Positions 4,390 through 28,483 of a stretch of DNA of 64,000 nucleotides are shown one piece after another. This DNA is from an archaeon UBA543 (GTDB taxonomy: Archaea > Undinarchaeota > Undinarchaeia > Undinarchaeales > UBA543): positions 5,548 through 69,547 of the forward strand of contig DAPM01000017.1 of the NCBI GenBank assembly GCA_002502135.1, in the 5' to 3' direction. Position 1 is the first letter of the stretch, and every line of letters starts with the position of its first letter. A program made the translations under genes and the position numbers. The notes beneath the pieces were generated by a model. It was not told the origin of the DNA. It ran no database searches and worked only from the letters and a program-made list of their open reading frames with translations.

Positions 4390-4424
4390 TGTGTTCTCTT
4401 GTATTACTTCATATAAATAATTAA

Positions 4425-4510: not shown

Positions 4511-4547
4511 AATAACTTTTTCTATAAAATCGCTATTTAATAAGCTT

Positions 4548-4865: not shown

Positions 4866-4867
4866 TT

Positions 4868-5029
4868 TTAAGGTCCCACAAATTTGCATTTAGAGCAAGT
4901 GTACTCTCTAGACAGCTTCTTGCACCTCTGGCATCTTCCAATCACAATGTCGCTGCAACCAGGGCACTTGAATTCTGCTTTCACTTCTTCTGCTTCGAGA
5001 TTTGCTCCGCAACTAGTACATGTAGTCAT
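4868..5029 (-). CDS. Small Zn-ribbon protein (two CxxC pairs)
   Basis: 53-aa ORF missed by the ORF track: MTTCTSCGANLEAEEVKAEFKCPGCSDIVIGRCQRCKKLSREYTCSKCKFVGP. It has CxxC...CxxC...CxxC...CxxC Zn-ribbon spacing and is tightly coupled to the downstream gene. Confidence 0.5.
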   Translation of the reverse strand: MTTCTSCGANLEAEEVKAEFKCPGCSDIVIGRCQRCKKLSREYTCSKCKFVGP

Positions 5030-5132
5030 AGTAGGGTTTTGTATAAAATGGGTTGGTTATAAATGTTATTGTTTACCTGCCCCTACAAATCCAATTTACA
5101 TAATGCTTTTAAACTAAATTTAGGACTATTTC

Positions 5133-7021: not shown

Positions 7022-8027
7022 AGTCGGAATTAATGGATACGGAACAATTGGAAAACGCGTTGCAGATGCGGTTTCCAAGCAGGATGACATGGAAATTGTC
7101 GGTGTTACAAAGACTCGCCCTACTTGGGAAGCAAAAAATGCAATCAAAGCAGGCTACAAACTATTCTGCGGAATTCCAGATAATGTAAATAATTTCAAGG
7201 AAGCTGGAATTGAGCTAGCTGGAGACATTAATGATTTGCTAGGTCAGTGCGATATTATGATTGATTGTTCTCCAAAAAAGATTGGAGCTGAAAATTTGGA
7301 GAAATATTACAAACCACAAGGCATCAAGGCAATTTACCAGGGTGCTGTGAAACACGATGCAATTGGGGAGAGCTTTAATGCACAGTCTAATTACGATTCA
7401 GCAAAAGGAAAACAGAATGTTAGAGTTGTTTCCTGTAATACCACAGGGCTCAGCAGAGTTCTTGGAGCTTTAGACAAGGCTTACGGAGTAAAGAAAGCTA
7501 GAGTTGTGCTAGTTCGAAGAGCTTCCGATCCTGGCAGTTCAAAGAGCGGGCCTGTTGATGGAATTGTTCCAAACCCAATAACAGTGCCAAGTCATCACGG
7601 TCCTGATGTTCTAACTGTTCTTCCAAAGTTGAATATTGTTACAAGCGCATTCAAAGTTTCAAGCACTTTCATGCACGCCCATTCACTTATGATAGAATTG
7701 GACAAGGAAGTTTCAGCAGAAGAAGTTAAAGAACTTTTCAAGAAAACACCACGCTTGCTTATGGTTAATTCTTCAGAGGGATTGACTTCAACAGCAGAGT
7801 TGATGGAATTTGCACGAGACTTTGGCAGACCAAGGTATGATATGTATGAGAACCTAGTCTGGGAAGACTCAATTGGAGTTGAAGGCAATGAATTGTACTT
7901 CTTCCAGGCAGTTCCGCAAGAATCCATAGTTATTCCAGAAAATATTGATTGTATTCGCGCAATGTGCAGTGATGTTAGTGCAGAAGAGAGTATGGAGAAG
8001 ACTAACAAAACACTTGGAATTAAATAA
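7014..8027 (+). CDS. gap: Glyceraldehyde-3-phosphate dehydrogenase, archaeal type II
   Basis: Start MIKVGINGYGTIGKRVADAV is the archaeal GAPDH N-terminus. There is an 8-nt overlap with pgk, consistent with translational coupling. Confidence 0.9.
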   Translation: MIKVGINGYGTIGKRVADAVSKQDDMEIVGVTKTRPTWEAKNAIKAGYKLFCGIPDNVNNFKEAGIELAGDINDLLGQCDIMIDCSPKKIGAENLEKYYKPQGIKAIYQGAVKHDAIGESFNAQSNYDSAKGKQNVRVVSCNTTGLSRVLGALDKAYGVKKARVVLVRRASDPGSSKSGPVDGIVPNPITVPSHHGPDVLTVLPKLNIVTSAFKVSSTFMHAHSLMIELDKEVSAEEVKELFKKTPRLLMVNSSEGLTSTAELMEFARDFGRPRYDMYENLVWEDSIGVEGNELYFFQAVPQESIVIPENIDCIRAMCSDVSAEESMEKTNKTLGIK

Positions 8028-8667
8028 ACCCAACCAAATATCCATAAATCAACATTCCAACATACTTCACTAACCACCAATTAAACAGAAAAGCAACTGA
8101 GGTTCCAATTACATATTTTGACAACGGAGTTTTCATTGGGAATATAATTCTTAGCATCAGCAATAATCCGAGCCACGGGCCATACAAAATCAAATAGTAA
8201 AACGGAAGATTGGAAACAACAACACCGACACTAATCACCTGAACAAACACACCCATCACACTAATTGAAATAACACTATACCCCAACTGTTTCAAAATAT
8301 TTCTTTCCCCAGCTCTGAAAAAACTCTTTAATGGAATATCGGCCATGTAAAGCCACATCCTTAACGGAACCGACAGTAGTCTAAGCACAAGCGCTGTAAT
8401 CGGCCCAAGAGTCAGCACAATCATAAACAGCAAAAAATACGAAAACCGAATCCCAAACTCAGTAAACCTTGTCATTCTAGAAATTGTCAGAAGCAACAAA
8501 AGCCCAACATACAATCCAAGCAAACCCCAATTAACAAAAGAAGCTGCACCAACAAGTAATTTCCAAACCAAATAAACAATAGACAATCCAAAAACAACAA
8601 CAGTCAGCACTATTTTCCAAGGCTCCAGCTTGAACAGAAAGTCTTTAAAGCTCGATTTCCTCTTCAT
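8020..8667 (-). CDS. Hypothetical polytopic membrane protein
   Basis: 215 aa with about 6 hydrophobic segments. No family recognised. Confidence 0.4.
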   Translation of the reverse strand: MKRKSSFKDFLFKLEPWKIVLTVVVFGLSIVYLVWKLLVGAASFVNWGLLGLYVGLLLLLTISRMTRFTEFGIRFSYFLLFMIVLTLGPITALVLRLLSVPLRMWLYMADIPLKSFFRAGERNILKQLGYSVISISVMGVFVQVISVGVVVSNLPFYYLILYGPWLGLLLMLRIIFPMKTPLSKYVIGTSVAFLFNWWLVKYVGMLIYGYLVGFI

Positions 8668-8740
8668 TTCTTTCTTTCTGGTTTGTCCTCATAATTTATA
8701 TAATACTTGGTATTTAATATAGGAAAAGGGGGAGATACAT

Positions 8741-9931
8741 TTGGCAGAGATTTCAAACAGAACAGCTACACTAGGCACTGAAAACGCATTTGTTGTTCTT
8801 GCAGAAGTGAAGAAGCGCATAAAGCAAGGCGACGATATTGTTAATTTTTGTATTGGTCAGCCCGACTTCGATACACCTGATAATATAAAAAAAGCTGCAA
8901 TCAGGGCCATTATCGAAGGGAAAACTGGCTACACACCATCTGCTGGAATTACCGAACTTCGAGAAGCAGCTGCAAAATACTTTTCACGAACAAGGGGCAT
9001 TGAAGTTGATCCAAAACATGTTGCAACAGCTTGCGGAGGCAAACCGTTCATTTACTGGACAATTCTGAGTACAACTGATCACGGGGTTGGTGATGAAATC
9101 CTATACCCAAATCCTGGTTTCCCAATTTACGAATCACAAATCAAAGCATGTGGAGCAGTTCCAGTTGCCCTCCCACTTCGAGAAGAGAACGCATTCTCTT
9201 TCAGTATTGACGACTTAGCAGAGAAAATCACTTCGAAAACCAAAATGCTCATACTCAACTCACCACACAACCCAACTGGCAATGTCCTAAAAAAGCACGA
9301 ACTTAAGGGAATTGCCGACCTTGCTATGGAGCACGATTTTTGGGTGTATTCTGATGAGGTTTACTCCAGTCTGATTTATGATGGCAAGTTTGAGTCAATA
9401 GTTTCAATTCCTGGGATGGAGGAACACACAATAGTTGTGGATTGCGTTTCAAAATCATATGCAATGACTGGTTGGCGTCTTGGTTACGCTTACAACAAGC
9501 ACTTATCAGAGCATTTTGCAAGATGGATGACAAATACTGATTCCTGTGCTTCTCATCCTATCCAATGGGCAGGCGTTGAGGCTTTGAATGGTCCGCAGGG
9601 GCACAGTCAGTTAATGACTGAAAGCTTTAAAGAGCGCCGGAACTTAATTGTTAATGGTTTGAATGAAATGTCTGGTGTTTCTTGCTTATCTCCTGGTGGC
9701 GCTTTCTATGCCTGGCCAAATGTTACTGAAGCTTGCAGAAAGGTTGGAGCAGCGAATTCAGAGGAGTTCAGAAAGATGCTTTTGGATCACGGCGTAGCGG
9801 TTTTGGCCGATACCCACTTTGGTCCTAAGAATCCTGGCCAAGAACAGGAATACATAAGGTTTTCATATGCCACTTCACAAGAAGAAATCAGTGAAGGGCT
9901 TAAAAGAATGAAGGAATTTGTGGAAAAATGA
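8741..9931 (+). CDS. Aspartate/aromatic aminotransferase (class I, PLP-dependent)
   Basis: 396 aa. Motifs NFCIGQPDF, NSPHNPTG and SKSYAMTGWRLGY (PLP lysine). Confidence 0.85.
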   Translation: MAEISNRTATLGTENAFVVLAEVKKRIKQGDDIVNFCIGQPDFDTPDNIKKAAIRAIIEGKTGYTPSAGITELREAAAKYFSRTRGIEVDPKHVATACGGKPFIYWTILSTTDHGVGDEILYPNPGFPIYESQIKACGAVPVALPLREENAFSFSIDDLAEKITSKTKMLILNSPHNPTGNVLKKHELKGIADLAMEHDFWVYSDEVYSSLIYDGKFESIVSIPGMEEHTIVVDCVSKSYAMTGWRLGYAYNKHLSEHFARWMTNTDSCASHPIQWAGVEALNGPQGHSQLMTESFKERRNLIVNGLNEMSGVSCLSPGGAFYAWPNVTEACRKVGAANSEEFRKMLLDHGVAVLADTHFGPKNPGQEQEYIRFSYATSQEEISEGLKRMKEFVEK

Positions 9932-13437: not shown

Positions 13438-14199
13438 ATGATAAACCCGGTCAGATCTATTTATAGAAGAGTGGTCTCAATTCCACATATCTTATTTCCA
13501 AAAAAGCTAAACACGATGCCTTATTTCCAGAGAATGAAACTCTTCTACAAACTCGAGCGAGTTCACTGGAACATCAGGTGCTATCACAAAAGGAGTCACA
13601 TAGTACCGTTTATCAAATGGCTTATTGAAAATCCTGAGATCGGGGGCTCTATTATTGAAGCAGGATGCGGACAGGGCGGAAGTACAACTAAACTCAGCAT
13701 TATCGCCAAAATGCTTAACAAGAAACTAATAGTTTTTGACAGTTTCCAAGGTCTTCCACATGGAAGCGACGAAGTTAAAAACATTCTTGGAAATCCTGCA
13801 GAGAAATTCAAAACTGGAAATTTCGCAACTCCACTTAAACAAGTCAAAGAAAACATTTCAAAATACGGAGAACTTGGCCAGTGCAAATTTGTTGAAGGCT
13901 GGTTCAAGGACACTCTGCCCTCTTTTAACGAAACCATCTGCGCAGCATATATTGATGTTGATCTCCCATCCAGCACAGCAACTTGTATCAAATATCTGTT
14001 CCCACATCTCTCTGAACATGGGCTTTTCTATTCACAAGATGGTGATTACCCTTCTGTTCTCGCAACCTTCTTATCAACAGATATATGGCATGACATCCAA
14101 TATAATGTTCCTAAAATCCGCCATCTTGGAAGCAAATTAAAAATCATCTGGATTGAAAGAACAATTCCAAGCGCTAGGCAAAAGCATAATCTTTATTAA
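13438..14199 (+). CDS. TylF/MycF-like SAM-dependent O-methyltransferase
   Basis: 253 aa. GSIIEAGCGQGGST...FDSFQGLP...GWFKDTLP matches the macrocin-O-methyltransferase family layout. It sits immediately upstream of the aglB pair. Confidence 0.55.
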   Translation: MINPVRSIYRRVVSIPHILFPKKLNTMPYFQRMKLFYKLERVHWNIRCYHKRSHIVPFIKWLIENPEIGGSIIEAGCGQGGSTTKLSIIAKMLNKKLIVFDSFQGLPHGSDEVKNILGNPAEKFKTGNFATPLKQVKENISKYGELGQCKFVEGWFKDTLPSFNETICAAYIDVDLPSSTATCIKYLFPHLSEHGLFYSQDGDYPSVLATFLSTDIWHDIQYNVPKIRHLGSKLKIIWIERTIPSARQKHNLY

Positions 14200-14224
14200 T
14201 ACCTGTTTTCAACCAGTGTGCATG
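14180..14224 (+). promoter_or_regulatory. Putative archaeal TATA promoter for aglB copy 1; member of a duplicated 45-nt upstream sequence
   Basis: AAAAGCATAATCTTTATTAATACCTGTTTTCAACCAGTGTGCATG is near-identical to 16442..16486. The TTTATTAATA box is centred ~27 nt before the ATG, which implies a leaderless mRNA. Confidence 0.5.
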
Positions 14225-16435
14225 AATGAGGGGGGAGAGGATGATTCATCCTTTGATTTTTCAAAGTTAAAGAATCGATTCAAGCGCGACAAAGCGTCTG
14301 GCGACAGCATGGCTCTGGATCTTTCTGGCCCAGCCAAGTGGCTCAAAAACAACAAGAAGTTCCTAATTTACGGGCTTCTGGTTTTGCTTTTATTATTCTC
14401 CGGATGGCTTAGATTTATGCCAGAGGAAAAGTACACTGGAATTTATGAAAATTCACTTTCTGCCATGGATCCTTACTGGCATTACAGACATGCAAACGAC
14501 GTTTATGAGCATGGTTTTGTTGGTGACGAAGAAGTCTGCTATAATGAGGCAGCGAAACTAACAACCAAATATGATGGCTCGTGTCCACCCGGTTCTGAAC
14601 ACGCCTATTGGGATTTCATGCACGATGCCCCTGAAGGAAGTCGTATTGACCAGGAATTCTACCCATACTTTTCTGCATATTCTTACAAGTTTTTCGGTAG
14701 AGCATTTGCACCTAACTTGCTTGTCTGGCACCGCTGGACACCTGCGCTTTTCGGAATACTAGCAGTTCTTGGAATGTTCCTTCTGGCAAAACAATTATTC
14801 GGGCCTTACGCAGGACTTGCTGCAGGTTTCCTCTTTTCACTAGCGCCTTCATTTTTAACAAGAAGTGTTTCTGGATTTGCAGATACTGACGCAGTAATCG
14901 GGTTCTTCACTGTATTCTCGCTTTATTTCTTCATAAAAGCCTGGGATAACAACTCCATATTATATGCAATAATCGGTGGAGTCTGTCTTGGTTTGTTTGG
15001 TGTAGCCTGGCCAGGGTACGAGTTCATGCCACTTCTATTGATGGGCATGGCTGGATTTTTCTTTGTTTACAAAACCGTCCCTAAAATAATTGAAGGTTCC
15101 AGAAATTTCATAAAATTGGTTGTCGATCATTTGAAAGAGTATTGGAAAAAGTATGCAATTCTTGCGCTCTTACTATTGGTTACTCTAACTCTTGTAGGAT
15201 CTATCCGCGGTTTCAAGGAAGTTAATGTGTTTGAAGCAATAACTGCTTCTACAAGATTCAAAGTTGAAGATGTTGTTGACACTTCTGTTGAAGGAGAGGA
15301 CGTACTTGAGGTTTACAAAACCGTTGCTGAGATGAATCCTTCAAATCTCAGAAATATTGTTATTCGTCTTCATTACGCTCTTGTACTTCTTGCTGTTGGT
15401 TTCATAGCCTTACTCCCATTTGGATTATGGAAAAAGGTGAAAGATAATACACACCATATCGCCTTCCTCTTACTTTGGTTCGGTGCTACATTCTACATGT
15501 CTTTCAAGGCAATGAGGTTTATTGGAATGGCAGTATTCCCTGTTTGTATTTTTGCAGGAATCACTATTGCATTCTTGATTTCAAAAATCAAGCTGAAGCG
15601 CCCTGTTATTTCAGTTATATTTGCACTTATCATTTTCCTTTCAATCTTTGCAGTTCCTAATATTGCTATGGTCAAGGGGCAGGAATGGGGTGTATCCTAT
15701 TACGCCAGTGGAAGAGCAACTGCAGATCAAACTGGTCCATCTTTAGGACCTAATTGGTTTGACTTCCTCTACTGGGCCAGAGACTCGACTCCTGAAGGCT
15801 CAATATTCGCATCTTGGTGGGATCCTGGACATGCAATGACAGCTATCGGTGAGCGTCCTGCGGTTGCTGACGGAAGTCAGAACTCCTGGCATATCCACGA
15901 TCTCGCAGTCATCTTCACCACAACTGATGAAAATCTCGCAGTTGAACGGCTCAAAAAATATGATGTGTCTTACTTTTACACAAGTTCTGACCTGATTAAC
16001 AAGTATGGTGCAATCAGTTTCCTGTCTAATGGACAGGGTGAAAACTATCCGTTCCTCAATCTTGCTGAATCCAAGGAAGTTGCTTCAGGAAATGTTTTGA
16101 TATATCCTGTTGCTTCTCAGACAGACATAATCCTTGAATTAAGAGAAGATGGGATGAGTGCAGTTATATCTCAGAGATTCCAGAAACAGACAATAAAACG
16201 GATCTTCTACACTCAGAACGATCAGAGCTATGTTTCAGAATCAGATGACCCAGATGCATTCGAAGCAATGCTGTATCTCCAGCCTAATTTCCAGCAGGCC
16301 ATATTCCTTCCAATTCATCTGGAAAACAATATGCTCACCCAGCTTCACTTCTTCAATGGTCAGAATCTTGAGCACTTTGAGTATGTTGGCAATTACGGTG
16401 ATGAAATAAAAGTTTTCAAAGTCATTTATGACTAG
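14222..16435 (+). CDS. aglB: Oligosaccharyltransferase AglB/STT3 family, paralog 1
   Basis: Start placed at MNEGGEDD (leaderless, after the TATA). N-terminal polytopic membrane domain carries a DPYWHYR first-loop motif (cf. STT3 DPWFNYR), a T-x-x-E-like KTVAEM and a C-terminal WWDPGH (variant of the WWDYG motif). Confidence 0.75.
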   Translation: MNEGGEDDSSFDFSKLKNRFKRDKASGDSMALDLSGPAKWLKNNKKFLIYGLLVLLLLFSGWLRFMPEEKYTGIYENSLSAMDPYWHYRHANDVYEHGFVGDEEVCYNEAAKLTTKYDGSCPPGSEHAYWDFMHDAPEGSRIDQEFYPYFSAYSYKFFGRAFAPNLLVWHRWTPALFGILAVLGMFLLAKQLFGPYAGLAAGFLFSLAPSFLTRSVSGFADTDAVIGFFTVFSLYFFIKAWDNNSILYAIIGGVCLGLFGVAWPGYEFMPLLLMGMAGFFFVYKTVPKIIEGSRNFIKLVVDHLKEYWKKYAILALLLLVTLTLVGSIRGFKEVNVFEAITASTRFKVEDVVDTSVEGEDVLEVYKTVAEMNPSNLRNIVIRLHYALVLLAVGFIALLPFGLWKKVKDNTHHIAFLLLWFGATFYMSFKAMRFIGMAVFPVCIFAGITIAFLISKIKLKRPVISVIFALIIFLSIFAVPNIAMVKGQEWGVSYYASGRATADQTGPSLGPNWFDFLYWARDSTPEGSIFASWWDPGHAMTAIGERPAVADGSQNSWHIHDLAVIFTTTDENLAVERLKKYDVSYFYTSSDLINKYGAISFLSNGQGENYPFLNLAESKEVASGNVLIYPVASQTDIILELREDGMSAVISQRFQKQTIKRIFYTQNDQSYVSESDDPDAFEAMLYLQPNFQQAIFLPIHLENNMLTQLHFFNGQNLEHFEYVGNYGDEIKVFKVIYD

Positions 16436-16441
16436 AGCAGA

Positions 16442-16486
16442 AAAAGCATAATCTTTATTAATACCAGTTTTCAACCAATGTCTATG
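16442..16486 (+). promoter_or_regulatory. Putative TATA promoter for aglB copy 2 (duplicate of 14180..14224)
   Basis: AAAAGCATAATCTTTATTAATACCAGTTTTCAACCAATGTCTATG has the same TATA box and spacing. Confidence 0.5.
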
Positions 16487-18697
16487 GCAGATGGGGAAGA
16501 AGGTAAATCCTTTAAGTTTTCAGATATAGAGAGCCGGCTAAATGAAGGTCGCGATATCTCTAAAAGTATTACCTGGGTCAAGGAGAACAAAAAGACTGTA
16601 ATCTATCTTGTCTTGTTTCTGATATTACTATTTTCAACGGTTATCCGATTTGCTCCTGAACAACAGTATACAGGAATTTATGAGGACACTCTTGCTCTTG
16701 GGGACTCTTACTGGCATTACAGACACGCAAAAAACGTTTATGAGCATGGTTTTGTGGGTGATGAAGAGCTTTGCTATAACGAGCAAACCAAAGATACCCA
16801 GGCCTATGACGGTTCGTGCCCTGATGGATATGAACCAGCGTATTTTGACACACTGCACGATGCTCCATTTGGGGTTAAAATTGAGCAGGAATTCTATCCA
16901 TATTTCTCAGCTTATTCCTATAAATATTTCGGTAGAGCATTTGCACCTAACTTGCTTGTCTGGCACCGCTGGACACCTGCATTTTTCGGAATCCTATCAG
17001 TTCTTGGAATGTTCCTTCTCGTTAAACAATTATTCGGACCTTATGCCGGACTTGCTGCAGGTTTAATTTTTTCCCTTGCTCCCTATACTATAATCAAAAC
17101 TATTTCAGGAACAGCTGATACTGAAGCAGTTGTGACATTTTTCACTATATTTACTTTCTACTTTTTTGTAAAGGCGTGGAATCTTTCATCATTTAAATAT
17201 GCTGTAGCCGGAGGCATCACTCTCGGATTGTTCGGAATTGCCTGGGCATCCTATAGGTTCGCTCCTGTCCTCATGCTGGCTGTACTATTCTTCTTCTTTT
17301 TGCAGAAAGTTTATCCTAAATTCAAACAAGGGCGCAGGGATATCTTCAAATTAATAAAAGAGCACTTGACAGAGTACTGGAAAAAATATACTACATTCTT
17401 AATAATACTCGCCATTGGACTTCCTATTATCGGTTTTGTCCGCGGCTTCATTCATATTAATTTCTTCTATGCAATTACAACAGCTTTAAAATTAAAAACA
17501 ACAACAGCTGCGACAACAGTTGGAGGAGAAGTCATCCGTGATGTTTACTCTACAATCACTGAAATGAAGCAAATCGGACTTCATACTATTGTAACAAGGC
17601 TTCACCTTGTTCCAGCACTTCTCTGCGCATCTTTCTTTGCTCTTCTTCCATTTGGCTTGTGGAAAAAATACAAGGATAAAGCTCCCCAGGTTCTTTTTAT
17701 TTTAGTCTGGTTTGCAGCTGCAGTTTTTATGACTTTTAAGGCAACCCGATTTATTATAATGCTGATTCTTCCAGTTTCAGTACTTGCTGGAACAGCTGTT
17801 GGATTCGTGATCTCAAAGATGAGGCAAAAGAAGCTTGTTTTTTCGGTTGTAATTGCTGTTATCCTTCTCATAGTGCTTTTTGTTCTTCCAAACATTCCTG
17901 CTCAGCAAGGCCAGCCAGAACTTCCACAATCTGGTGTTTCACGAAATCGTTCATATTTCTCAACTGGAATTGAATTTACATCTCTTCCAAAACCTCTTTT
18001 AAACCAAAATTGGATAAATTTCTACAAATGGGCGCGTGAACAAACTCCAGAAGATGCAATCTTTGCTTCATGGTGGGATCATGGCCACCTAACTACCGCT
18101 GTTGCTGAACGGGCTATTGTAGCAGACGGAAGTCAAAACAATCTTCATATTCACGATCTTGCCGTTATTCTTACTACTAATGACGAAGATCTAGCTGTAG
18201 AGCGATTGAAAAAATACAATGTTTCATACTTCTTCACAAGTTCAGATATGATAAACAAGTATGGACTGATACTATATCTTGCTGATAAACAGGGCAGTGA
18301 GTATACATTAATTGTTAACCCTGAAATCCAAACCACCCCTCTCGGGCCGGTTTTAGTTTATACTATGGATGAAGCAAATAAAATCACTTTGAAACAGGAA
18401 GAAGATGAACGAATATCTGCTACATTAAGACAGGGGTATCAAACAACACCAATCAATCGAACTCTTTATTACACTAATAATTCTACGCCACTCATTTCTG
18501 AAAGCGAGGCAGAGGATGCGCTCGACATGCTGATTTATGTTCTTCCTCAATGGTTTGGAATCTTTCTTTTAAACCCTGAGATTGAAAAATCAATGCTCAC
18601 TCAACTCCACTTTTTCAATGCAGATTATCTTGAGCATTTCGAATTTATTGAAAGTTTTGGCGGAGAAATCAAGGTCTTTAAGGTAAATTATGACTAA
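16484..18697 (+). CDS. aglB: Oligosaccharyltransferase AglB/STT3 family, paralog 2
   Basis: Track start is 16478; the ATG homologous to copy 1 is 16484 (MADGEEG). Motifs: DSYWHYR, STITEM, WWDHGH. A stretch around 16929..16982 is nucleotide-identical to 14697..14750. Confidence 0.75.
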   Translation: MADGEEGKSFKFSDIESRLNEGRDISKSITWVKENKKTVIYLVLFLILLFSTVIRFAPEQQYTGIYEDTLALGDSYWHYRHAKNVYEHGFVGDEELCYNEQTKDTQAYDGSCPDGYEPAYFDTLHDAPFGVKIEQEFYPYFSAYSYKYFGRAFAPNLLVWHRWTPAFFGILSVLGMFLLVKQLFGPYAGLAAGLIFSLAPYTIIKTISGTADTEAVVTFFTIFTFYFFVKAWNLSSFKYAVAGGITLGLFGIAWASYRFAPVLMLAVLFFFFLQKVYPKFKQGRRDIFKLIKEHLTEYWKKYTTFLIILAIGLPIIGFVRGFIHINFFYAITTALKLKTTTAATTVGGEVIRDVYSTITEMKQIGLHTIVTRLHLVPALLCASFFALLPFGLWKKYKDKAPQVLFILVWFAAAVFMTFKATRFIIMLILPVSVLAGTAVGFVISKMRQKKLVFSVVIAVILLIVLFVLPNIPAQQGQPELPQSGVSRNRSYFSTGIEFTSLPKPLLNQNWINFYKWAREQTPEDAIFASWWDHGHLTTAVAERAIVADGSQNNLHIHDLAVILTTNDEDLAVERLKKYNVSYFFTSSDMINKYGLILYLADKQGSEYTLIVNPEIQTTPLGPVLVYTMDEANKITLKQEEDERISATLRQGYQTTPINRTLYYTNNSTPLISESEAEDALDMLIYVLPQWFGIFLLNPEIEKSMLTQLHFFNADYLEHFEFIESFGGEIKVFKVNYD

Positions 18698-19652
18698 AAC
18701 AAGATCAATTGTTTCAAAAGCACTCCCTATCTTTGGAGTCCTTTTGTTCGCATATATTCTTTACAGGGTTGGGCTTGGAAATATCTGGGGCAATATACGA
18801 GTTCTCAATCTAAAGTACTTTTCAATAGCAGTCGCACTGTTAATTCCTACAATTCTCATCAAAGCGTTCAAATGGAACCGAGTCCTGGCTGCCATGGGAT
18901 TCAAATATCCTCTTGGTGAGAGTTCAAAGTCTCTTACAATCTCTTATTTTATTGGCTCGTTAACCCCAGCCCGCCTTGGAGACTTTACAAGAGCACTTTA
19001 TTTGAAAAAATACAAGGTTTCACTTTCAAAAGCATTCTCCTCTGTTCTAATTGACAGATTATTTGATGTCGGAATCCTTGTCCTAATGGCTGTGTTCAGT
19101 GTAATAACACTTGTTCAGAGATTTTCTCTTGCGTTTTCAAGCATTTTACTCGTGCTCTTCATAGCGGTTTCATTTGGAGCTATTCTTCTACTTGTGCTCA
19201 GAAAAAAATTAATGCGAAAACTTCTCAAGCCATTCTTCTATATGTTGATTCCTGAGAAATTCCAGAAACAGCTCATAAATATCTTCGATGACTTTTATAC
19301 TAGCATTGCCGAATTCAGTCAGAATTTGTCAGTGATGTTCTCACTCTCGTTTTTGACATTAATTTCCTGGATAATCTCATTTATTTCAACATATTTTATT
19401 GCACTTTCACTTGGAATTGAAATCAAATTCTTTATACTTCTATTAATGCTCCCATTCTCAACACTAGTTGAAATGCTTCCAATCTCATTCTCAGGAGTCG
19501 GAACCAGAGATGCAGTATTTATCTTAATGTTCTCCCTCCTAGCAATACCAGCTGCAAAAGCAGTTTCATTCTCACTCATGATACTGATTTTCAATTATAT
19601 CCTATGTCTGGTCGGAGCCCTGCTCTGGGTCAAAAAACCATTCAAGGTCTAA
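18690..19652 (+). CDS. UPF0104 / lysylphosphatidylglycerol-synthase-TM-like (flippase-like) membrane protein
   Basis: 320-aa polytopic protein. The overall pattern resembles the flippase-like domain family often found beside GT2 genes. Confidence 0.5.
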   Translation: MTKTRSIVSKALPIFGVLLFAYILYRVGLGNIWGNIRVLNLKYFSIAVALLIPTILIKAFKWNRVLAAMGFKYPLGESSKSLTISYFIGSLTPARLGDFTRALYLKKYKVSLSKAFSSVLIDRLFDVGILVLMAVFSVITLVQRFSLAFSSILLVLFIAVSFGAILLLVLRKKLMRKLLKPFFYMLIPEKFQKQLINIFDDFYTSIAEFSQNLSVMFSLSFLTLISWIISFISTYFIALSLGIEIKFFILLLMLPFSTLVEMLPISFSGVGTRDAVFILMFSLLAIPAAKAVSFSLMILIFNYILCLVGALLWVKKPFKV

Positions 19653-19697: not shown

Positions 19698-22013
19698 ATG
19701 CAGATTGTAGTACTAGCTGGCGGATTGGCAACACGTATGAGACCGGTTACAGAGACCATTCCAAAAGCAATGATTCAGGTCAATGGCAAGCCTTTTCTGG
19801 AGCACCAGATTAAACTATTCCGAAGGAACGGAGTTACTGATATTATCTTGTGTGTTGGATACAGGGCTCAGCAGATAAAGGATTATTTCGGGGACGGCTC
19901 TAAATTCGATGTCAGAATCCGCTACAGTGACGAAGGAGACAACCTAAAAGGCACAGCAGGCGCTCTAAAGCAAGCAGAAGCGCTTCTGGATGACGAATTC
20001 CTTGTGATTTATGGAGATTCTTTTCTCACAACCAATTTTCAGGATGTAATTGATCATTTTAACAAGAATGACAAGTCAGCTCTTTGCACTGTTTACAAAA
20101 ACGATTTAGAATATCACAAAAACAATATGCAGGTTGCAGACGGGATGATTGTAAAGTACGACAAAACTGCTCAGACACCTGAAATGAAGCATGTTGACTA
20201 CGGACTTTCTATTCTCAGAAAATCAATATTGGATTCAATTCATCCTGATCGTGTAATCCAACTTGACGAAATATTCCAAACTCTAATCGCTAACAAGGGG
20301 TTACTTGCTTACGAAGTTTCTGACAGGTTTTATGAAATTGGTGAACCTGAAGGACTTAAACAGTTTGAGGATTATTTGAAGAGTAAAGACGAAACTACAA
20401 AAGCTTCAGGATGTGCTGGGTGTCCAAAATCAAGAATGTGCGGTACTGGGGTTCAGACTTCTTTTGAGCACAAGCGAGTTGAAACAATTGTTGGGCTTCC
20501 TGATAGTGTTGGAAAAGGGAAAAGTATCAAGAAGGTTCTGTTAATCTTTCCACACAGGATAAGTTTTTCCGGATACAAAGAGGATTTATCTCCTCCAATG
20601 GGCATGGCTTGTCTTGGTGCAGTTCTGGAAAACGCAGGATATGAAGTTAAAATTATTGATGCTGCAGCAGAGGATTTCAACCATTCTGAAAAAATTAATG
20701 ACAACATGGTACGGCTCGGAATAAGTATGGAAGACTTGAAACAGAGAATTACAGACTATCATCCTGATTTTGTTGGGGTGTCTTGTCTTTTCACAGCTCA
20801 GATCAAGACTGTTCTTGAAATCTGCAAGTCAATTAAGGAAGTTGATCCAAGTGTTCCTGTTGCAGTTGGTGGTTCTCATCCATCCGCTTTGCCTGAGCAG
20901 TCACTCAAATCACAATTCTTGGATTATGTAATCATTGGAGAAGGTGAATACACTTGCCGAGAGCTTCTCAACAAGCTGAAAACCAATGAGTCAGTTTCTG
21001 ATATTGACGGTTTTGCCTGGAAAGAAGACGGCAAGATTCACGTAAATCCTAAAACAAAATTTATAGAAGACATTAATGAGCTTCCTGAGCCAGCAAGGCA
21101 CTTACTGCCTATGAAAACATATTTTGACATTAATCTACCTCAGTGCGGAACCTCTCTCAAGAGACCGAACACTACAATTGCAACTTCAAGGGGGTGCACA
21201 GGCAACTGTGTGTTCTGTGCAACTACAAAACTCTGGGGAAGACGGTTCAGGCCGTTTGCAGTTGAGCGAGTTCTGGATGAAATGGAGACACTAATCAAGG
21301 ATTACGGAATTAAGGAGTTCCAATTTATTGACGACAACCTCACACTCAACAAAGAACGTGCAATGAAGATTTTCCAGGGAATGATTGACCGAAAATTCAA
21401 TATTGTCTGGAATACTCCGCAAGGTATAGCAATCTGGGCACTGGATAATGAGCTTCTGGACAAAATGAAAGAATCTGGGTGCTACGAAATCACAATTGCT
21501 GTTGAGAGCGGAGACCAGGATGTTCTTACTAACATAATCCACAAGCCAACAAACCTTTCAAAAGTTGAGGGAATTGTAAAACATGCAAAGAAACTCGGCT
21601 TGATTGTGAAAGGATACTTTGTTGTAGGATTCCCGGGTGAAAAGAAATGGCAGATGCAGAAAACTTTTGATATTGCAAAAGACTTGAAGTTTGATGCAGC
21701 TGGAATTTTCATTGCAACACCACTTCCAGGCACACAATTATACAAACAATGCAAGGAAAAAGGGTATCTTCGCCCTGGTTTTGATTTTGAACGTGTGAAT
21801 TATGGAGTTGGAAATATTATTACTCCAGATTTCAAGCCTGAAGAAATCGAGCAGATGGTTTCAGAAAATATTATCAAAATCAACATGGCTCTCTTGTACA
21901 GAAATCCTTGGAAGTTTGCAAAGAAGTATTTCCAGCTTGTTAAGCGAAATCCAAGAGTTATGTTTGATTATATGGGCTTCTTATGGAAGAAAGCAAGGAG
22001 GAAGAAATCATAA
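19698..22013 (+). CDS. Fusion protein: sugar-1-phosphate nucleotidyltransferase (N-terminal) plus cobalamin-binding radical SAM enzyme (C-terminal)
   Basis: 771 aa. The N-terminus MQIVVLAGGLATRMRPVTETIPKAMIQVNGKPFLEHQI is a G-x-G-x-R NTP-transferase fold (HddC/RmlA-like). The middle region is a B12-binding Rossmann (VLLIFPHRISFSGY...VIIGEGEY). Then comes ATSRGCTGNCVFCATT, the CxxxCxxC radical-SAM cluster. Confidence 0.8.
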   Translation: MQIVVLAGGLATRMRPVTETIPKAMIQVNGKPFLEHQIKLFRRNGVTDIILCVGYRAQQIKDYFGDGSKFDVRIRYSDEGDNLKGTAGALKQAEALLDDEFLVIYGDSFLTTNFQDVIDHFNKNDKSALCTVYKNDLEYHKNNMQVADGMIVKYDKTAQTPEMKHVDYGLSILRKSILDSIHPDRVIQLDEIFQTLIANKGLLAYEVSDRFYEIGEPEGLKQFEDYLKSKDETTKASGCAGCPKSRMCGTGVQTSFEHKRVETIVGLPDSVGKGKSIKKVLLIFPHRISFSGYKEDLSPPMGMACLGAVLENAGYEVKIIDAAAEDFNHSEKINDNMVRLGISMEDLKQRITDYHPDFVGVSCLFTAQIKTVLEICKSIKEVDPSVPVAVGGSHPSALPEQSLKSQFLDYVIIGEGEYTCRELLNKLKTNESVSDIDGFAWKEDGKIHVNPKTKFIEDINELPEPARHLLPMKTYFDINLPQCGTSLKRPNTTIATSRGCTGNCVFCATTKLWGRRFRPFAVERVLDEMETLIKDYGIKEFQFIDDNLTLNKERAMKIFQGMIDRKFNIVWNTPQGIAIWALDNELLDKMKESGCYEITIAVESGDQDVLTNIIHKPTNLSKVEGIVKHAKKLGLIVKGYFVVGFPGEKKWQMQKTFDIAKDLKFDAAGIFIATPLPGTQLYKQCKEKGYLRPGFDFERVNYGVGNIITPDFKPEEIEQMVSENIIKINMALLYRNPWKFAKKYFQLVKRNPRVMFDYMGFLWKKARRKKS

Positions 22014-22046: not shown

Positions 22047-23027
22047 ATGATCATAACACAAACCCCACTCAGAATAACACTCGGCGGAGGAGGCACAGAT
22101 TTAGCTTCCTATTACTCAAAACACACAGGATTCCTGATAAGCGCTGCAATCGACAAGTATGTTTACATTAGTTTGCACAAGACTTTTGACAAGGATATTA
22201 CAGCCCACTATTCAAAACATGAGAAAGTTTCAAATGTTGCAGAATTACAGCACCCCATCATCATGGAAGCACTCAAACTCACAGGAATCGAGAGTGGTAT
22301 AGAGGTTTCCAGCATGGCAGACATCCCAGCAGGAACAGGATTAGGTTCTTCCGGATGTTTCACAGTCGGACTTCTGAATGCACTTCACACTTCTAAAAGA
22401 GAAAAATTATCTTCACACGAGCTAGCAGAAGAGGCTTGCAAAATCGAAATTGATCTTCTAAAAGAGCCAATTGGCAAGCAGGATCAGCACGCTTGTGCTA
22501 CAGGGGGCTTGACTGCATTCACTTTTGAGAAAGACGGCACTGTCAAAGCAGAGCCAATGAAAGTTTCCCAGAAAACAATGAATGCACTGGAAGACAATCT
22601 CTTACTTTTCTTTACAAATTACTCCAGAAGTGCTTCAGGTATTCTGAAAGAGCAGGATGACAAGAGCAAACAGGATGAAGATGAAATGATTCAGAACCTG
22701 CACAAAGTCAAAGAGCTTGGTGTTGAGAGCAAGCTTGCACTTGAATCTGGAAATCCTGACAAGCTTGGAGAATTAATGCACATTCACTGGGAGAACAAGA
22801 AAAAACGCTCAGGTTCAATGAGTAATCCTAAAATTGACAAATGGTACAACATTGCAATGGAGAATGGTGCTCTTGGCGGAAAACTGGTTGGCGCTGGCGG
22901 AGGCGGATTCCTGATGTTCTACGCAAATGACAAAGAGAAGCTTCGGGAAGCAATGCGCAAGGAAGGTTTGAGTGAGGTCAGGTTCAGATTCGACTTTGAT
23001 GGTTCTAAAGTATTGGTGAATGTATGA
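22047..23027 (+). CDS. GHMP-family sugar kinase, HddA-like (D-glycero-alpha-D-manno-heptose-7-phosphate kinase-like)
   Basis: 326 aa. MIITQTPLRITLGGGGTDL is the HddA-type N-terminus; the GHMP motif PAGTGLGSSG is present. Confidence 0.7.
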   Translation: MIITQTPLRITLGGGGTDLASYYSKHTGFLISAAIDKYVYISLHKTFDKDITAHYSKHEKVSNVAELQHPIIMEALKLTGIESGIEVSSMADIPAGTGLGSSGCFTVGLLNALHTSKREKLSSHELAEEACKIEIDLLKEPIGKQDQHACATGGLTAFTFEKDGTVKAEPMKVSQKTMNALEDNLLLFFTNYSRSASGILKEQDDKSKQDEDEMIQNLHKVKELGVESKLALESGNPDKLGELMHIHWENKKKRSGSMSNPKIDKWYNIAMENGALGGKLVGAGGGGFLMFYANDKEKLREAMRKEGLSEVRFRFDFDGSKVLVNV

Positions 23028-23788
23028 AGAGAGCAGTTGTAACTGGTGGAAGCGGTGGAATTGGAAAAATTATAGCAAAAGCACTGCACGATAACGGTTT
23101 TGAAATCATTCTTGTTGCTAGAAATGAAGAGAATTTGAAAAAAGCTGCACCAGAAATTGGAACTAATGTTAAAACATTCCCTTGCGATGTTACAAGCTAC
23201 ACTCATGTTGAATCTCTTTTCGCAAATTTTGATAAAATTGATGTTCTAGTAAATTCTGCAGGCATTCTTGGGCCAACTGAAACCCTTGCAGATTCTGACA
23301 TTGCTAATTGGAAGCGAGTACTTGAAGTTAATTTAATAGGAACAGTAAATTGCTGCAAAGCTGCTGGCCCCATTCTTGAAAAGTCAGAGCACGGGAAAAT
23401 TGTGAATATTGCAGGCGGTGGTGCTGCATATGCAAGACCACTTCATTCTGCTTATGCAACTTCAAAAGCAGGAGTAGTCAGGTTCACCGAAGAATTATCA
23501 TTGGAACTGAAGAACACAGATGTTAATGTTATTGCTCCTGGAGCGCACAACACAAAACTCTGGGAAGATGAGAAGGTTGATGAACCGCCAGAGCAGTGGG
23601 CAAACCCAGAAGATGTTGCAAAACTTGTGCTCTATCTTGCTTCTGAAAAATCTAATGGAATTACTGGCAAATTCATACACATCAAGGATGATTACGAAAG
23701 TTTCACTCCAGAGCTTTCAAAATCTGACAAATGCGCATTGAGGCGCGTTGACGACATATTGCTGGAGAAATTGAAAAATGAATTATAA
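23024..23788 (+). CDS. Short-chain dehydrogenase/reductase (SDR)
   Basis: 254 aa. Motifs TGGSGGIGK and YATSKAG (Y-x3-K). Confidence 0.8.
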   Translation: MKRAVVTGGSGGIGKIIAKALHDNGFEIILVARNEENLKKAAPEIGTNVKTFPCDVTSYTHVESLFANFDKIDVLVNSAGILGPTETLADSDIANWKRVLEVNLIGTVNCCKAAGPILEKSEHGKIVNIAGGGAAYARPLHSAYATSKAGVVRFTEELSLELKNTDVNVIAPGAHNTKLWEDEKVDEPPEQWANPEDVAKLVLYLASEKSNGITGKFIHIKDDYESFTPELSKSDKCALRRVDDILLEKLKNEL

Positions 23789-23816
23789 AGTTGAGGAGGT
23801 TGGAAAATACTAATAT

Positions 23817-23889
23817 CGGGGCACTGTGGAACCGCGGGGCCGGAGCGCCGAACGGCGCCCCTGCGCACCCGCGCCCCGGATCCACTGGA
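23817..23889. repeat. GC-rich structured intergenic element (copy A)
   Basis: A ~73-nt stretch of very high GC in a ~40% GC context. The core 23852..23879 (ACGGCGCCCCTGCGCACCCGCGCCCCGG) is the exact reverse complement of 60499..60526. It contains internal hairpins GCGCC-GAAC-GGCGC and GCGC-ACCC-GCGC. Confidence 0.6.
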
Positions 23890-23894
23890 CAAAA

Positions 23895-24860
23895 ATGAAA
23901 ACAGGAATTATTGGTTGCGGTCTAATCGGCTGGCGCAGAGCTAGTTTTCTAGGCGAGGATGAGCTTGTAATGTGCGCAGATGTCGATGAGGAGCGCGCCA
24001 AAAAGCTTGCAGAGGAATTTGATTGCGAATATTCTACTGATTCTACAAAAGTAACAAGTGATCCTCGAATTGAAGCTGTAATTATTTCGACTACAAACCA
24101 ATTCTTAGCAGAAATCGCTACCGATGCTGTCCGAAATAACAAACACTGCTTAATTGAAAAACCAGGAGCAAGAACTCTTGTTGAATATGAGCAGTTGATG
24201 AATGTTGCTAAAGAGCAAGGCGTTAAAGTGAAAATCGGTTACAATCACAGATTCCACCCATCCTTCTTGAAAGCTAGGGAGATTGTTGATTCTGGAGAAA
24301 TTGGTGAAGTAATGTATGTCAGGGGAAGGTATGGTCACGGCGGACGGCTTGGGTACGATAAAGAGTGGCGTGCAGATCCGCAAAAGTCTGGTGGTGGTGA
24401 GATGCTAGATCAGGGAACTCACTTAATTGACTTGGCTCGATGGTTCTGTGGCGAATTCACAGATGTTAAAGGCCATGTTGGCACTTTCTTCTGGGACATG
24501 CCAGTTGAGGATAATGGTTTTGCGCTCCTAAAAACAGATTCAGGCAAAGTTGCATGGCTGACTGCAAGCTGTACTCAGTGGAAGAATTTGTTCTGCTTTG
24601 AGATTCACTGCAAAACTGGATTGCTTGTAATTGACGGTCTTGGCAAGAGTTATGGCAAAGAAACACTCACTTTCCACAAAATGAAGCCTGAAATGGGTAT
24701 TCCTGATACTGAAACCTTCACTTGGGATGAAGATGATTCCTGGAAAAAGGAGTGGGTTGAGTTTAGAAGTGCGATTTCAGAGAATCGGGAGCCAATGAGC
24801 TCAATCTCAGATGCTTATGGAAACTTTAAGGTTGTTTCTGACCTCTACAAAACCCACTGA
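23895..24860 (+). CDS. Gfo/Idh/MocA-family NAD(P)-dependent oxidoreductase
   Basis: Track ORF starts at 23826, but its first 23 aa translate the GC-rich element. The real start is MKTGIIGCGLIGWRRA (Rossmann), followed by a C-terminal Gfo/Idh/MocA alpha/beta domain. Confidence 0.8.
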   Translation: MKTGIIGCGLIGWRRASFLGEDELVMCADVDEERAKKLAEEFDCEYSTDSTKVTSDPRIEAVIISTTNQFLAEIATDAVRNNKHCLIEKPGARTLVEYEQLMNVAKEQGVKVKIGYNHRFHPSFLKAREIVDSGEIGEVMYVRGRYGHGGRLGYDKEWRADPQKSGGGEMLDQGTHLIDLARWFCGEFTDVKGHVGTFFWDMPVEDNGFALLKTDSGKVAWLTASCTQWKNLFCFEIHCKTGLLVIDGLGKSYGKETLTFHKMKPEMGIPDTETFTWDEDDSWKKEWVEFRSAISENREPMSSISDAYGNFKVVSDLYKTH

Positions 24861-24904
24861 TTTTAACATACATAACCCTTAAAACCTCTTTTCCCGACCA
24901 TTTT

Positions 24905-25516
24905 TTGATAATAATGGATAATGTAGAGTATATCAACAAATACTTTTCCGAAATGAAAGATGTTATTGGAAACATCTCTGCGGAAGACACAGCTGGGGTA
25001 GTTAATGCGCTATTCACAGCCTGGAAAAACGGAAACCAAGTATTCCTAATTGGAAACGGTGGTTCTGCAAGCACAGCCACTCACATGGCATGCGACCTAA
25101 ACAAGTGCACAATTGTTGAGGGAAAACCTCGAATGAAAGCTCTTGCACTGGTTGACAATATTCCAGTAGTCAGCGCACTTACAAATGACGACGGCTGGGG
25201 TGAAATTTATGTTGAACAGCTTAAGAATTTCTTTAAAACAGGTGATGTTGTTATTGCTTTTAGTGTTCACGGCGGATCTGGAAGCGACAAGGCAGGTGCC
25301 TGGTCACAGAACCTTTTGAAAGGACTGCAGTATGCAAAAGATAATGGCGGAGTTGCAATTGGAATCTCCGGGTTTGACGGCGGAGCAATGAAGCAAATGG
25401 CAGACCACTGCATTGTAGTGCCTGTGGAATCAACACCACACACCGAATCACTGCATTTAGCAATCGAGCATCTCATTACAAACTGCTTGAAGGAGAAAAT
25501 AATCAACCAAGCATGA
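24905..25516 (+). CDS. gmhA: SIS-domain sedoheptulose-7-phosphate isomerase (GmhA-like), copy 1
   Basis: 203 aa. FLIGNGGSASTATHMACDL is the GmhA signature. Confidence 0.75.
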   Translation: MIIMDNVEYINKYFSEMKDVIGNISAEDTAGVVNALFTAWKNGNQVFLIGNGGSASTATHMACDLNKCTIVEGKPRMKALALVDNIPVVSALTNDDGWGEIYVEQLKNFFKTGDVVIAFSVHGGSGSDKAGAWSQNLLKGLQYAKDNGGVAIGISGFDGGAMKQMADHCIVVPVESTPHTESLHLAIEHLITNCLKEKIINQA

Positions 25517-26118: not shown

Positions 26119-26119
26119 A

Positions 26120-28481: not shown

Positions 28482-28483
28482 TC

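Follow-up and report, generated by a model that had tools for sequence, protein, structure and literature searches.

The closest described relatives of the proteins considered here are the archaeal AglB enzymes, of which AglB-L from A. fulgidus (3WAJ/3WAK/5GMY/7E9S) and AglB-L from P. furiosus (2ZAG) have been solved. The products of two adjacent genes (g1 and g2) from a marine Undinarchaeota (DPANN) archaeon resemble them in the combination of an STT3 N-terminal multi-span domain with a C-terminal globular domain, and in the residues D83, D221 and D/E223, the E370 of T-x-x-E, and the WWDxG motif; K594/I598 align with the DxxKxxxI motif of P. furiosus as its putative counterparts. However, the sequence identity to the solved AglBs is only about 16%, the fourth position of WWDxG is taken by Pro or His, and in the DK motif the Asp is displaced upstream by one residue (D590-x3-K594).

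Several aglB paralogues in one genome are well documented. A. fulgidus has three, and more than 30 of the 168 genomes surveyed have multiple copies; WWDXG varies between the AglB copies of a genome, and different substrate roles have been proposed for them (PMC5131992). The genes described here differ from those cases in that they are directly tandem, have conserved promoters of their own and are linked by a demonstrable conversion tract; moreover, the turnover of paralogues differs between related genomes. The literature searched contained no comparable case for AglB. Tandem single-subunit STT3 paralogues are found in T. brucei, where distinct donor and acceptor specificities of TbSTT3A/B/C were shown experimentally (PMC2722254). 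This makes them a functional model for a possible role of the Undinarchaeota pair, but the trypanosomal enzymes are eukaryotic and their specificity was measured, whereas for the Undinarchaeota pair a difference is suggested by exchanges close to the sequon pocket.

Gene conversion between tandem paralogues in prokaryotes leaves the same traces as those seen here: a short, non-reciprocally homogenised tract where the otherwise diverged copies are best conserved, and a local drop in synonymous divergence. Mechanistically, the conversion described here is nothing new; the novelty is only in the gene family and in the host lineage, a genome-reduced DPANN archaeon. A literature search on gene conversion among AglB/STT3 paralogues and on glycosylation in Undinarchaeota found nothing specific. 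For a DPANN archaeon that has not been cultivated, the locus is a clean and reproducible case of gene conversion over a short tract, which is tidy but ordinary paralogue evolution. It leaves the current understanding of N-glycosylation unchanged; multiple AglBs, the variability of WWDXG and conversion between tandem paralogues are already established.

The AglB pair, its neighbours and its promoters

In the window (the whole stretch of 64,000 nt of DNA that was analysed), g1 and g2 are adjacent on the same strand and both open reading frames are intact (Table 1). The earlier note had correctly recognised a tandem AglB/STT3 pair, with small errors in coordinates; g1 encodes 737 aa and g2 739 or 737 aa, and of the two possible starts of g2, the ATG at 16484 is the one that aligns with the start of g1. 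The copies are 53% identical at the protein and 62% at the DNA level.

Table 1 Positions of the genes, promoter blocks and repeated segments within the window.
Feature	Position	Strand	Remarks
TylF-like O-methyltransferase gene	13438..14199	+	Pfam TylF E = 1.4e-18
g1 promoter block	14180..14221	+	BRE-like CATAA 14185..14189; TATA box TTTATTAA 14193..14200
g1, AglB/STT3 oligosaccharyltransferase, 737 aa	14222..16435	+	Pfam STT3 E = 2e-32; conservative copy, D type
High-identity island in g1	14642..14841	+	CDS nt 421..620; 86.5% identical to g2
54-nt exact repeat, g1 copy	14692..14745	+	core of the conversion tract; encodes FGRAFAPNLLVWHRWTPA
g2 promoter block	16442..16483	+	architecture as in the g1 block; TATA box TTTATTAA 16455..16462
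g2, AglB/STT3 oligosaccharyltransferase	16484..18697 (737 aa) or 16478..18697 (739 aa)	+	Pfam STT3 E = 1.6e-26; divergent copy, WWDHGH
54-nt exact repeat, g2 copy	16927..16980	+	identical to the g1 copy
LPG_synthase_TM-family membrane protein gene	18690..19652	+	Pfam E = 5.6e-46

The TylF-like gene upstream of the pair sits, by synteny, where the related Undinarchaeota genomes L002 and L003 have the upstream (U) AglB copy, and its stop codon falls within the TATA box of g1. On the other side, the start of the LPG_synthase_TM gene overlaps the end of g2 by 8 nt. It is conserved as a neighbour on this side of the AglB pair, with the same junction in L002 and L003, and a long glycan-biosynthesis cluster begins with it. 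The AglB pair is at the head of a large cluster for N-glycan and sugar biosynthesis.

Both proteins can be assigned to AglB/STT3 on the grounds of their Pfam STT3 matches (PF02516; 113.6 bits for g1 and 94.2 bits for g2 at a cut-off of 24.5), the fold matches to AfAglB, STT3A and PglB and the retained catalytic residues, and they are predicted to transfer lipid-linked glycans onto the Asn of N-x-S/T sequons. The AlphaFold model of g2 (pLDDT 85.6, pTM 0.82) has the overall fold expected from a GT-C transmembrane domain and a mixed alpha/beta periplasmic domain. Its top Foldseek matches were 3WAK, 7E9S, 5GMY, 8PN9, 6S7O, 6GXC, 5OGL and 3RCE (E 2.5e-18 to 3.4e-16, TM 0.57-0.67), with AfAglB (the first three) followed by STT3A and PglB at E about 1e-18. 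The family profile likewise matched STT3A and AfAglB in the PDB, with D83, D221/D223, E370 and WWD in alignment.

The motifs named earlier (DP/DSYWHYR, T-x-x-EM and WWDxGH) are indeed present in both copies, as MDPYWHYR, TVAEM and WWDPGH in g1 and as GDSYWHYR, TITEM and WWDHGH in g2. The Asp of the first loop (D83 in g1, D74 in g2) aligns with D49 of human STT3A, the D-x-D/E motif (D221 and D223 in g1, D212 and E214 in g2) with the D and E of its SYDNEG sequence, and the Glu of the TIxE/SVSE loop (E370 in g1, E360 in g2) with the E of VSEHQP. WWDPG of g1 (aa 532-536) and WWDHG of g2 (aa 530-534 of the 737-aa form) correspond in the alignment to WWDYG, the form found in human STT3A and in AglB of P. 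furiosus; except for its fourth residue, WWDxG is invariant in the family alignments, as are the catalytic columns. Where the family has DTD, g2 has DTE, and human STT3A also has Glu at the aligned position (D-N-E). A loss of catalytic Asp or Glu, which had been named as a sign of inactivation, was found in neither copy. For a DK or MI motif of the kind that shapes the Ser/Thr (+2) pocket, K594 and I598 are candidate residues, since they line up with Lys and Ile in DxxKxxxI from P. furiosus; I598 is invariant in the family and K594 is invariant in the 17-sequence alignment A1 and conserved to at least 90% in A3, and the spacing to the displaced Asp is D590-L-I-N-K594.

The fourth residue of WWDxGH, which had been regarded as non-canonical, does not set the pair apart. 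Pro is the norm of the family (27 of the 36 relatives collected), His recurs in the relative L020, and Tyr, Phe and Glu occur in other members. In the literature the motif is given as WWDXG, and its X differs among Euryarchaeota, methanococci having WWDNG (PMC5131992, PMC11407970). We therefore discarded the motif as a special feature.

Each gene has a TATA-type promoter of its own, from which transcription should begin at or beside the ATG. The blocks upstream of g1 and g2 match in 38 of 42 positions (-42 to -1) and include the exact 24-mer AAAAGCATAATCTTTATTAATACC at 14180..14203 and 16442..16465; the g2 block begins 7 nt past the stop codon of g1. A common upstream sequence of 45 nt with a box ~27 nt before the ATG had been described; the block is real, and the box, TTTATTAATA, spans -29 to -20 relative to the ATG. 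From the centre of the TATA box to the ATG it is about 26 nt, and both genes are without a Shine-Dalgarno sequence. In archaea the distance from TATA box to transcription start is usually about 26 nt, which places the predicted start of g1 at or beside the ATG at 14222. As proposed before, the mRNAs from both promoters are probably leaderless, to judge from the position of the TATA box and the missing Shine-Dalgarno sequence.

The promoter itself is not peculiar to this pair. All six AglB genes from three genomes have its core, AAnCATAAynTTTATTA, without variation, and it fits the form CATAA-N2-3-TTTAWA seen throughout the window. A promoter-specific 17-mer matched, within the window and with up to 3 mismatches, only at the two AglB copies. 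The segment between TATA box and ATG of g2, TTTTCAACCAATGTCTATGG, is of the D type, as in the downstream copies L002_D and L003_D, and both window copies have the D-type segment. The duplicated promoter, singled out in the earlier note, is an inherited and conserved AglB element that gives no evidence of a recent event.

Origin of the two copies

We favour, with a probability of roughly 80%, the reading that g1 and g2 are two functional, separately transcribed AglBs that go back to an old duplication of a D-type gene, followed by divergence of g2 and later gene conversion. Both copies would derive from an ancestral tandem AglB pair, namely from its downstream (D-type) gene. The segment that was duplicated would have begun about 42 nt ahead of the start codon and ended shortly after the stop codon and, because it included the upstream ~42 nt, each copy would have inherited the same BRE/TATA promoter. 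The duplication is old, since synonymous sites outside the island are saturated. Thereafter g1 stayed conservative, whereas g2 diverged strongly, including residues that flank WWDxG and the DK sequon-binding elements. Non-reciprocal homologous recombination between the neighbours later replaced patches of sequence in the 5' third, where conservation is highest; the latest of these patches is the 54-nt identical core within the ~200-nt island.

Several features point to the downstream gene as the source. g1 shares 63-64% identity with the downstream AglB copies in L002 and L003, and its 3' end, TATGACTAG, retains a vestigial overlapping start (ATGACTA) of the LPG_synthase_TM gene. Both copies end in the D-type sequence KVFKV(I/N)YD. 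In contrast to the solved AglBs, the D-type copies have a clade-specific insertion with two Cys in the first external loop; its form CY..C-P-x-G is common to both window copies, but it is no clean synapomorphy because similar Cys-containing insertions occur at the same loop in the more distant L011_1769, L020, P0017 and P0025. From this evidence, the D-type segment between promoter and ATG, and the signature positions and the tree of aa 1-210 discussed below, we infer a D-type origin of g2, more tentatively so for its 3' two-thirds.

The strongest competing explanation, although an unlikely one, is that g2 is the orthologue of the ancestral U-type AglB that was moved downstream of the D gene by unequal crossing-over. 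Its promoter and 5' third would then have been progressively overwritten by g1, and the window pair would be an old U/D pair turned into a mosaic by conversion. The neighbour-joining trees speak for this: g2 groups with the U-type copies in the whole-protein tree (72% bootstrap) and pairs with L003_U in the tree of aa 211-737 (88%), whereas the N-terminal third (aa 1-210) falls within the D clade (83%), and the patchy identity at the 5' end would suit repeated conversion. However, the raw identity of g2 to D-type genes equals or exceeds that to U-type genes in every region, including aa 211-737, and for this reason we attribute its placement with the U copies to long-branch attraction. The whole-protein phylogeny, which conflicts with the indel, the terminus and the signature positions, was set aside for the assignment of g2. 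At the signature positions g2 has 46 D against 13 U states, its 3' end and the overlap with the LPG_synthase_TM gene are of the D type, and a U-type origin would in addition require a swap in gene order.

Divergence and possible function of g2

Whatever its origin, g2 has changed far more than its neighbour. It departs from the family at 22 of 142 highly conserved positions, g1 at 4 of 142. The departures, some of which adjoin the sequon pocket, include P535H, D223E, A597L, S599L and F600Y, and the DK motif of g2 is surrounded by substitutions to M, L, L and Y. A relative of g2 above 52% identity was not present in the protein database searched, and a metagenome scan added no closer loci.

This degree of departure from conserved positions, together with the lack of a close orthologue in that database, could be taken to mean that g2 is a functionally redundant duplicate in decay, without a role of its own and with part of its likeness to g1 maintained by conversion. 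We consider this improbable. The 737-aa open reading frame is intact with all catalytic residues in place, dN/dS of the pair is about 0.2, from which it follows that both copies are under purifying selection, and the model of g2 confidently shows the full AglB fold. Furthermore, the promoter of g2 is conserved, its sequence is identical in five samples, and 2.2 kb of dead weight would be unexpected in a reduced DPANN genome.

If both copies are functional, as the favoured reading holds, a different sequon or donor specificity of g1 and g2 is plausible, with which the substitutions of g2 near the sequon pocket are consistent, and the two enzymes may be functionally specialised. Between closely related Undinarchaeota there is turnover in how many AglB copies a genome has and in which ones these are. 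It is tempting to go one step further and to speculate that AglB in these genome-reduced, probably host-dependent archaea is a small birth-and-death family, whose tandem copies are time and again gained, lost and partly homogenised by conversion, and that g2, with its WWDHGH and the changed surroundings of its DK motif, has a distinct acceptor or donor specificity, which would give two kinds of surface N-glycosylation by analogy to TbSTT3A/B/C; we regard this wider picture as tentative, with the odds rather against it. Should the specificities differ, nature would have provided a compact pair in which to study how sequon or donor preference is encoded around WWDxG and the DK elements, with a possible use in glyco-engineering.

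The shared tract and its surroundings

Within the 5' third, g1 and g2 have a segment in common that is identical over 54 of 54 nt. The 53-nt string given in the earlier note does occur twice; its coordinates of 14697..14750 and 16929..16982 have been corrected to those of the maximal exact repeat in Table 1. In the same columns all other ortholog and paralog pairs, taken from two related genomes, match in only 35-43 of 54 positions. The surrounding island of ~200 nt is 86.5% identical in the window pair, compared to 64.5-76% in the other pairs and 59% in the rest of the gene. Over aa 141-206, a codon range that overlaps the island, dS is 0.53, against 2.1-3.3 elsewhere in g1 and g2; in the other pairs, dS of this codon range is above 1.5 or saturated. 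The tract comprises 27 matching variable sites in a row, a length that 0 of 5000 permutations attained and that is far beyond chance, and a run test on synonymous codons gave p = 0.003 for the tract, in which 15 of 16 degenerate codons are identical (45% outside). The A in GRAFAP is common to the two window copies only. The full match, the drop in dS and the permutations bear out the recent gene conversion suggested before, and we take the identical segment to be a real and recent conversion tract. The island that encloses the 54-nt core probably represents a conversion tract of greater age or extent.

Could such identity arise without recombination, by purifying selection together with codon preference or through an element acting at the nucleotide level, such as an internal promoter or an RNA structure? 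The tract does encode the N-terminal segment that is best conserved in the family (62-85% amino-acid identity over all copies at aa 136-210), and preferred codons are common in conserved regions. However, the values of 35-43 of 54 and 64.5-76% in the relatives mean that there is no nucleotide-level constraint across species, dS falls just for the pair within one genome, and shuffling of the variable sites never reproduced the observed run; an Rfam scan of the whole window matched no RNA family and thus does not support the idea that the tract contains an RNA element. The comparison across genomes and the dS values largely refute codon bias and purifying selection as the cause, and we consider an origin without conversion very improbable.

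A collapsed or chimeric repeat in assembly or binning as the source of the tract, against which the earlier note had advised a check, or of the tandem arrangement itself, has a negligible probability: one MEGAHIT contig (L001) ends at window position 14707 within the g1 repeat copy, so the repeat can break assemblies, but five independent assemblies, which differ in sample and in assembler (JGI, SPAdes, a Tara scaffold and two MEGAHIT), show 100% identity to the window. Three of the five contain both copies of the tract with their unique flanks, and the 54-nt repeat is shorter than a typical read, so that reads anchor both sides.

The same process is seen in the AglB pair of the related genome L002. 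There, a run of 23 matching variable sites was likewise reached in 0 of 5000 permutations, and in several windows between nt 630 and 1700 the two L002 paralogues are more identical to each other than the D orthologues of L002 and L003 are.

Two oligosaccharyltransferase genes in tandem

The AglB/STT3 oligosaccharyltransferase genes g1 and g2 lie on the same strand, with ATG 16484 of g2 as the alignment partner of the g1 start. Both match Pfam STT3 (PF02516; E = 2e-32 for g1, 1.6e-26 for g2) and, more weakly, the AglB-core and PMT_2 models; they are 53% identical to each other at the protein and 62% at the DNA level. Exact copies of both proteins are found in Tara, JGI, ENA and NCBI data, and the source of the window is a marine archaeon of the Undinarchaeota/Undinarchaeales (DPANN).

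A 17-member family profile searched against the PDB matched human STT3A and A. fulgidus AglB-L (E ~1e-28) with the functional residues aligned. The first-loop Asp is D83 in g1 (MDPYWHYR), D74 in g2 (GDSYWHYR) and D49 in STT3A; the D-x-D/E motif reads D221-T-D223, D212-T-E214 and D-N-E, the Glu of the TxxE loop is E370 (TVAEM) and E360 (TITEM; VSEHQP in STT3A), and WWDxG reads WWDPG, WWDHG and WWDYG. Loss of a catalytic D/E from one copy, an objection raised in the earlier note, was not found, as the first-loop Asp, D-x-D/E and the TxxE Glu are kept in both. In the alignment, K594 and I598 of the family correspond to K and I of DxxKxxxI in P. furiosus AglB; the family Asp is shifted one residue upstream. 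The best fold matches of the AlphaFold model of g2 (pLDDT 85.6, pTM 0.82) are AfAglB (3WAK, 7E9S, 5GMY), human STT3A and PglB (E 2.5e-18 to 3.4e-16). Given a dN/dS of ~0.2 between g1 and g2, both genes look functional.

Two related Undinarchaeota genomes, L002 and L003, have their own tandem AglB pairs; U and D denote the upstream and downstream copy of the ancestral pair. A two-Cys insertion in the first external loop (CY..C-P-x-G, g1 aa 103-128) is present in D-type AglBs and g2, is missing from U-type and most other relatives, and may form a disulfide-stabilised loop. Distant relatives have other Cys-containing insertions at this site.

Coordinates of the features discussed (window positions unless a contig is named)
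Feature	Position	Strand	Remark
Divergent gene	8020..8667	-	
Short common intergenic region	8667..8741		mirrored TATA-like boxes
Divergent gene	8741..9931	+	
TylF-like O-methyltransferase	13438..14199		in the slot of the upstream AglB copy of L002 and L003
g1, AglB/STT3	14222..16435	+	737 aa
Two-Cys insertion, g1	14522..14600		
Tract, g1 copy	14692..14745	+	maximal exact repeat, 54 nt
g1 3' end	16425..16441		
g2, AglB/STT3	16478..18697	+	739 aa; 737 aa from ATG 16484
Two-Cys insertion, g2	16775..16850		
Tract, g2 copy	16927..16980	+	maximal exact repeat, 54 nt
Nucleotidyltransferase/B12-binding/radical-SAM fusion	19698..22013		771 aa
Sugar/glycan cluster	22047..32489		one strand throughout
Second GT-C (PMT_2) membrane protein	29422..30993		
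L002 tandem AglB pair	2804..7214 (CAZMMZ010000001.1)		related Undinarchaeota MAG

Gene conversion between the copies

The earlier note had described a tract identical in both genes and attributed it to gene conversion. A 53-nt string is indeed present twice; the coordinates were off by a few bases and the maximal repeat is one nucleotide longer. Around it, an island (g1 CDS nt 421-620) is 86.5% identical between g1 and g2, compared to 59% in the remaining gene. The decisive control was provided by the same columns in the tandem pairs of L002 and L003: of the 54 tract positions, every other ortholog/paralog pair shares only 35-43, with 64.5-76% identity in the island. Therefore, protein conservation alone does not explain the g1-g2 identity. 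In a GENECONV-style permutation test with 1450 variable sites, the 27 consecutive matching variable sites of g1 and g2 were reached in 0 of 5000 permutations. Degenerate codons for the same amino acid are identical in 15 of 16 cases within the tract versus 45% outside, and the Nei-Gojobori dS drops from 2.1-3.3 in the rest of the pair to 0.53 in the island; in all other pairs, island dS is >1.5 or saturated. Cross-genome control, permutation run, synonymous codons and dS bear out the conversion reading.

An assembly artefact does not account for the repeat either: the window sequence recurs at 100% identity in five independent assemblies, which differ in sample and assembler, and three of these include both copies of the tract. 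One MEGAHIT contig of a different sample (L001; its position 1 is window 14707) stops inside the g1 copy; the repeat can evidently fragment assemblies, yet the sequence itself is reproducible. We conclude that the tract is real and records gene conversion that is recent on an evolutionary scale, within an older homogenised island. Conversion would have started in the 5' third, the most conserved part of the gene, where the adjacent copies were probably similar enough for homologous recombination.

The L002 pair has a conversion signal of its own: 23 variable sites match in succession (alignment nt 2083..2115; 0/5000 permutations), several windows of nt 630-1700 show higher identity between its paralogs than between the D orthologs of L002 and L003, and dS after the island is 1.04. 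Concerted evolution of tandem AglBs thus recurs in this lineage.

Origin of g1 and g2

The gene order is TruD, AglB-U, AglB-D, LPG_synthase_TM, nucleotidyltransferase gene in L002 and L003, and TruD, TylF-like methyltransferase, g1, g2, LPG_synthase_TM in the window. The TAA stop of the TylF-like gene (14197..14199) falls within the g1 TATA box. g1 clearly belongs to the D type, with 63-64% identity to D copies and departures from conserved family positions at 4 of 142; g2 departs at 22 of 142. The 3' end of g1, TATGACTAG, keeps ATGACTA, in g2 and the D copy of L003 the overlapping start of the downstream LPG_synthase_TM gene. This points to descent of g1 from a duplicated D-position gene, with ATGACTA as a probable vestige that shows where this unit of duplication ended on its 3' side.

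The closest relative of g2 is g1 itself, and no entry of the protein database searched exceeds 52% identity. Its D-type promoter-to-ATG segment, the C-terminus KVFKVNYD, also of D type, whose coding end overlaps the start of LPG_synthase_TM by 8 nt, the shared CY..C-P-x-G insertion, 46 D versus 13 U signature positions and its place inside the D clade in a tree of aa 1-210 (83% bootstrap) are features that mark g2 as apparently D-derived. NJ trees group it with U copies (72% for the whole protein, 88% for aa 211-737), as would a mosaic gene of U origin; however, in no region does the identity of g2 to U exceed that to D, for which reason we regard this grouping as long-branch attraction and a U origin as unlikely.

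Promoters, WWDxG motif and glycan context

Upstream of g1 and g2 (-42 to -1), 38 of 42 positions match, including an exact 24-mer. The earlier note had singled out this duplicated promoter, but it is not specific to the window: the core AAnCATAAynTTTATTA and its ATG spacing are invariant before all six AglB genes of three genomes (window, L002, L003), and throughout the window many first-in-operon ATGs are preceded, at ~40-23 nt, by a looser CATAA-N2-3-TTTAWA. This looser element ends ~23-25 nt before the start codon, for example upstream of 13438, 19698, 22047, 24905, 44208, 60572(-), 42094(-) and 32486(-). The segment from TATA to ATG (TTTTCAACCA-A/G-TGT..ATGG) is common to the window pair and D-type AglBs of relatives. 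No Shine-Dalgarno sequence accompanies these elements in the window, a hint that this organism commonly makes leaderless mRNAs. The TATA centre of g1 and g2 lies ~26 nt before the ATG, the usual TATA-to-transcription-start distance in archaea, and leaderless g1 and g2 mRNAs are thus reasonably assumed. More distant relatives (L004, L005, L008) have GGAG directly before the AglB ATG instead. Between the divergent genes, mirrored boxes (TTATATAA and TTTATATAA) look like a compact bidirectional promoter.

WWD(P/H)GH had also been called non-canonical. Among 36 non-redundant relatives, WWDPGH (including g1) is commonest with 27, a provisional count since the listed variants sum to 40, followed by WWDYGY (5; L014, L015, L021, P0021, P0022), WWDFGH (3; P0018-P0020), WWDHGH (2; g2 and L020), WWDYGH (2; L011_1769, P0025) and WWDEGH (1; P0026). 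In the literature the motif appears as WWDXG, and its X varies in Euryarchaeota, e.g. WWDNG in methanococci; many archaea are also recorded to have several AglBs with differing motifs (PMC5131992, PMC11407970); replacement of the Tyr is therefore not novel. Of some interest is the g2-specific P535H, accompanied by D223E and by A597L, S599L and F600Y adjoining the DK motif, all among its 22 departures.

In the best-supported reading, the two genes, separately promoted and probably leaderless, stand at the head of a large glycan-biosynthesis cluster with GHMP kinase, SIS (GmhA-like), HAD phosphatase (GmhB-like), transaldolase, GT2, epimerase/dehydratase, methyltransferases, SDR, GFO/IDH oxidoreductase, the second GT-C protein and a flippase (Polysacc_synt); these genes would fit a heptose-type pathway that supplies N-glycans. 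We propose that g1 is the conservative housekeeping enzyme and g2 a divergent paralogue under purifying selection, whose acceptor or donor preference is plausibly modified. As a functional precedent, the tandem array TbSTT3A/B/C of T. brucei comes closest; distinct specificities were measured for it (PMC2722254). The tandem-AglB observation is real, and nothing at the locus is outside known biology. The 771-aa fusion is full in L002 (92% identity); its L003 counterpart is a 230-aa nucleotidyltransferase only.
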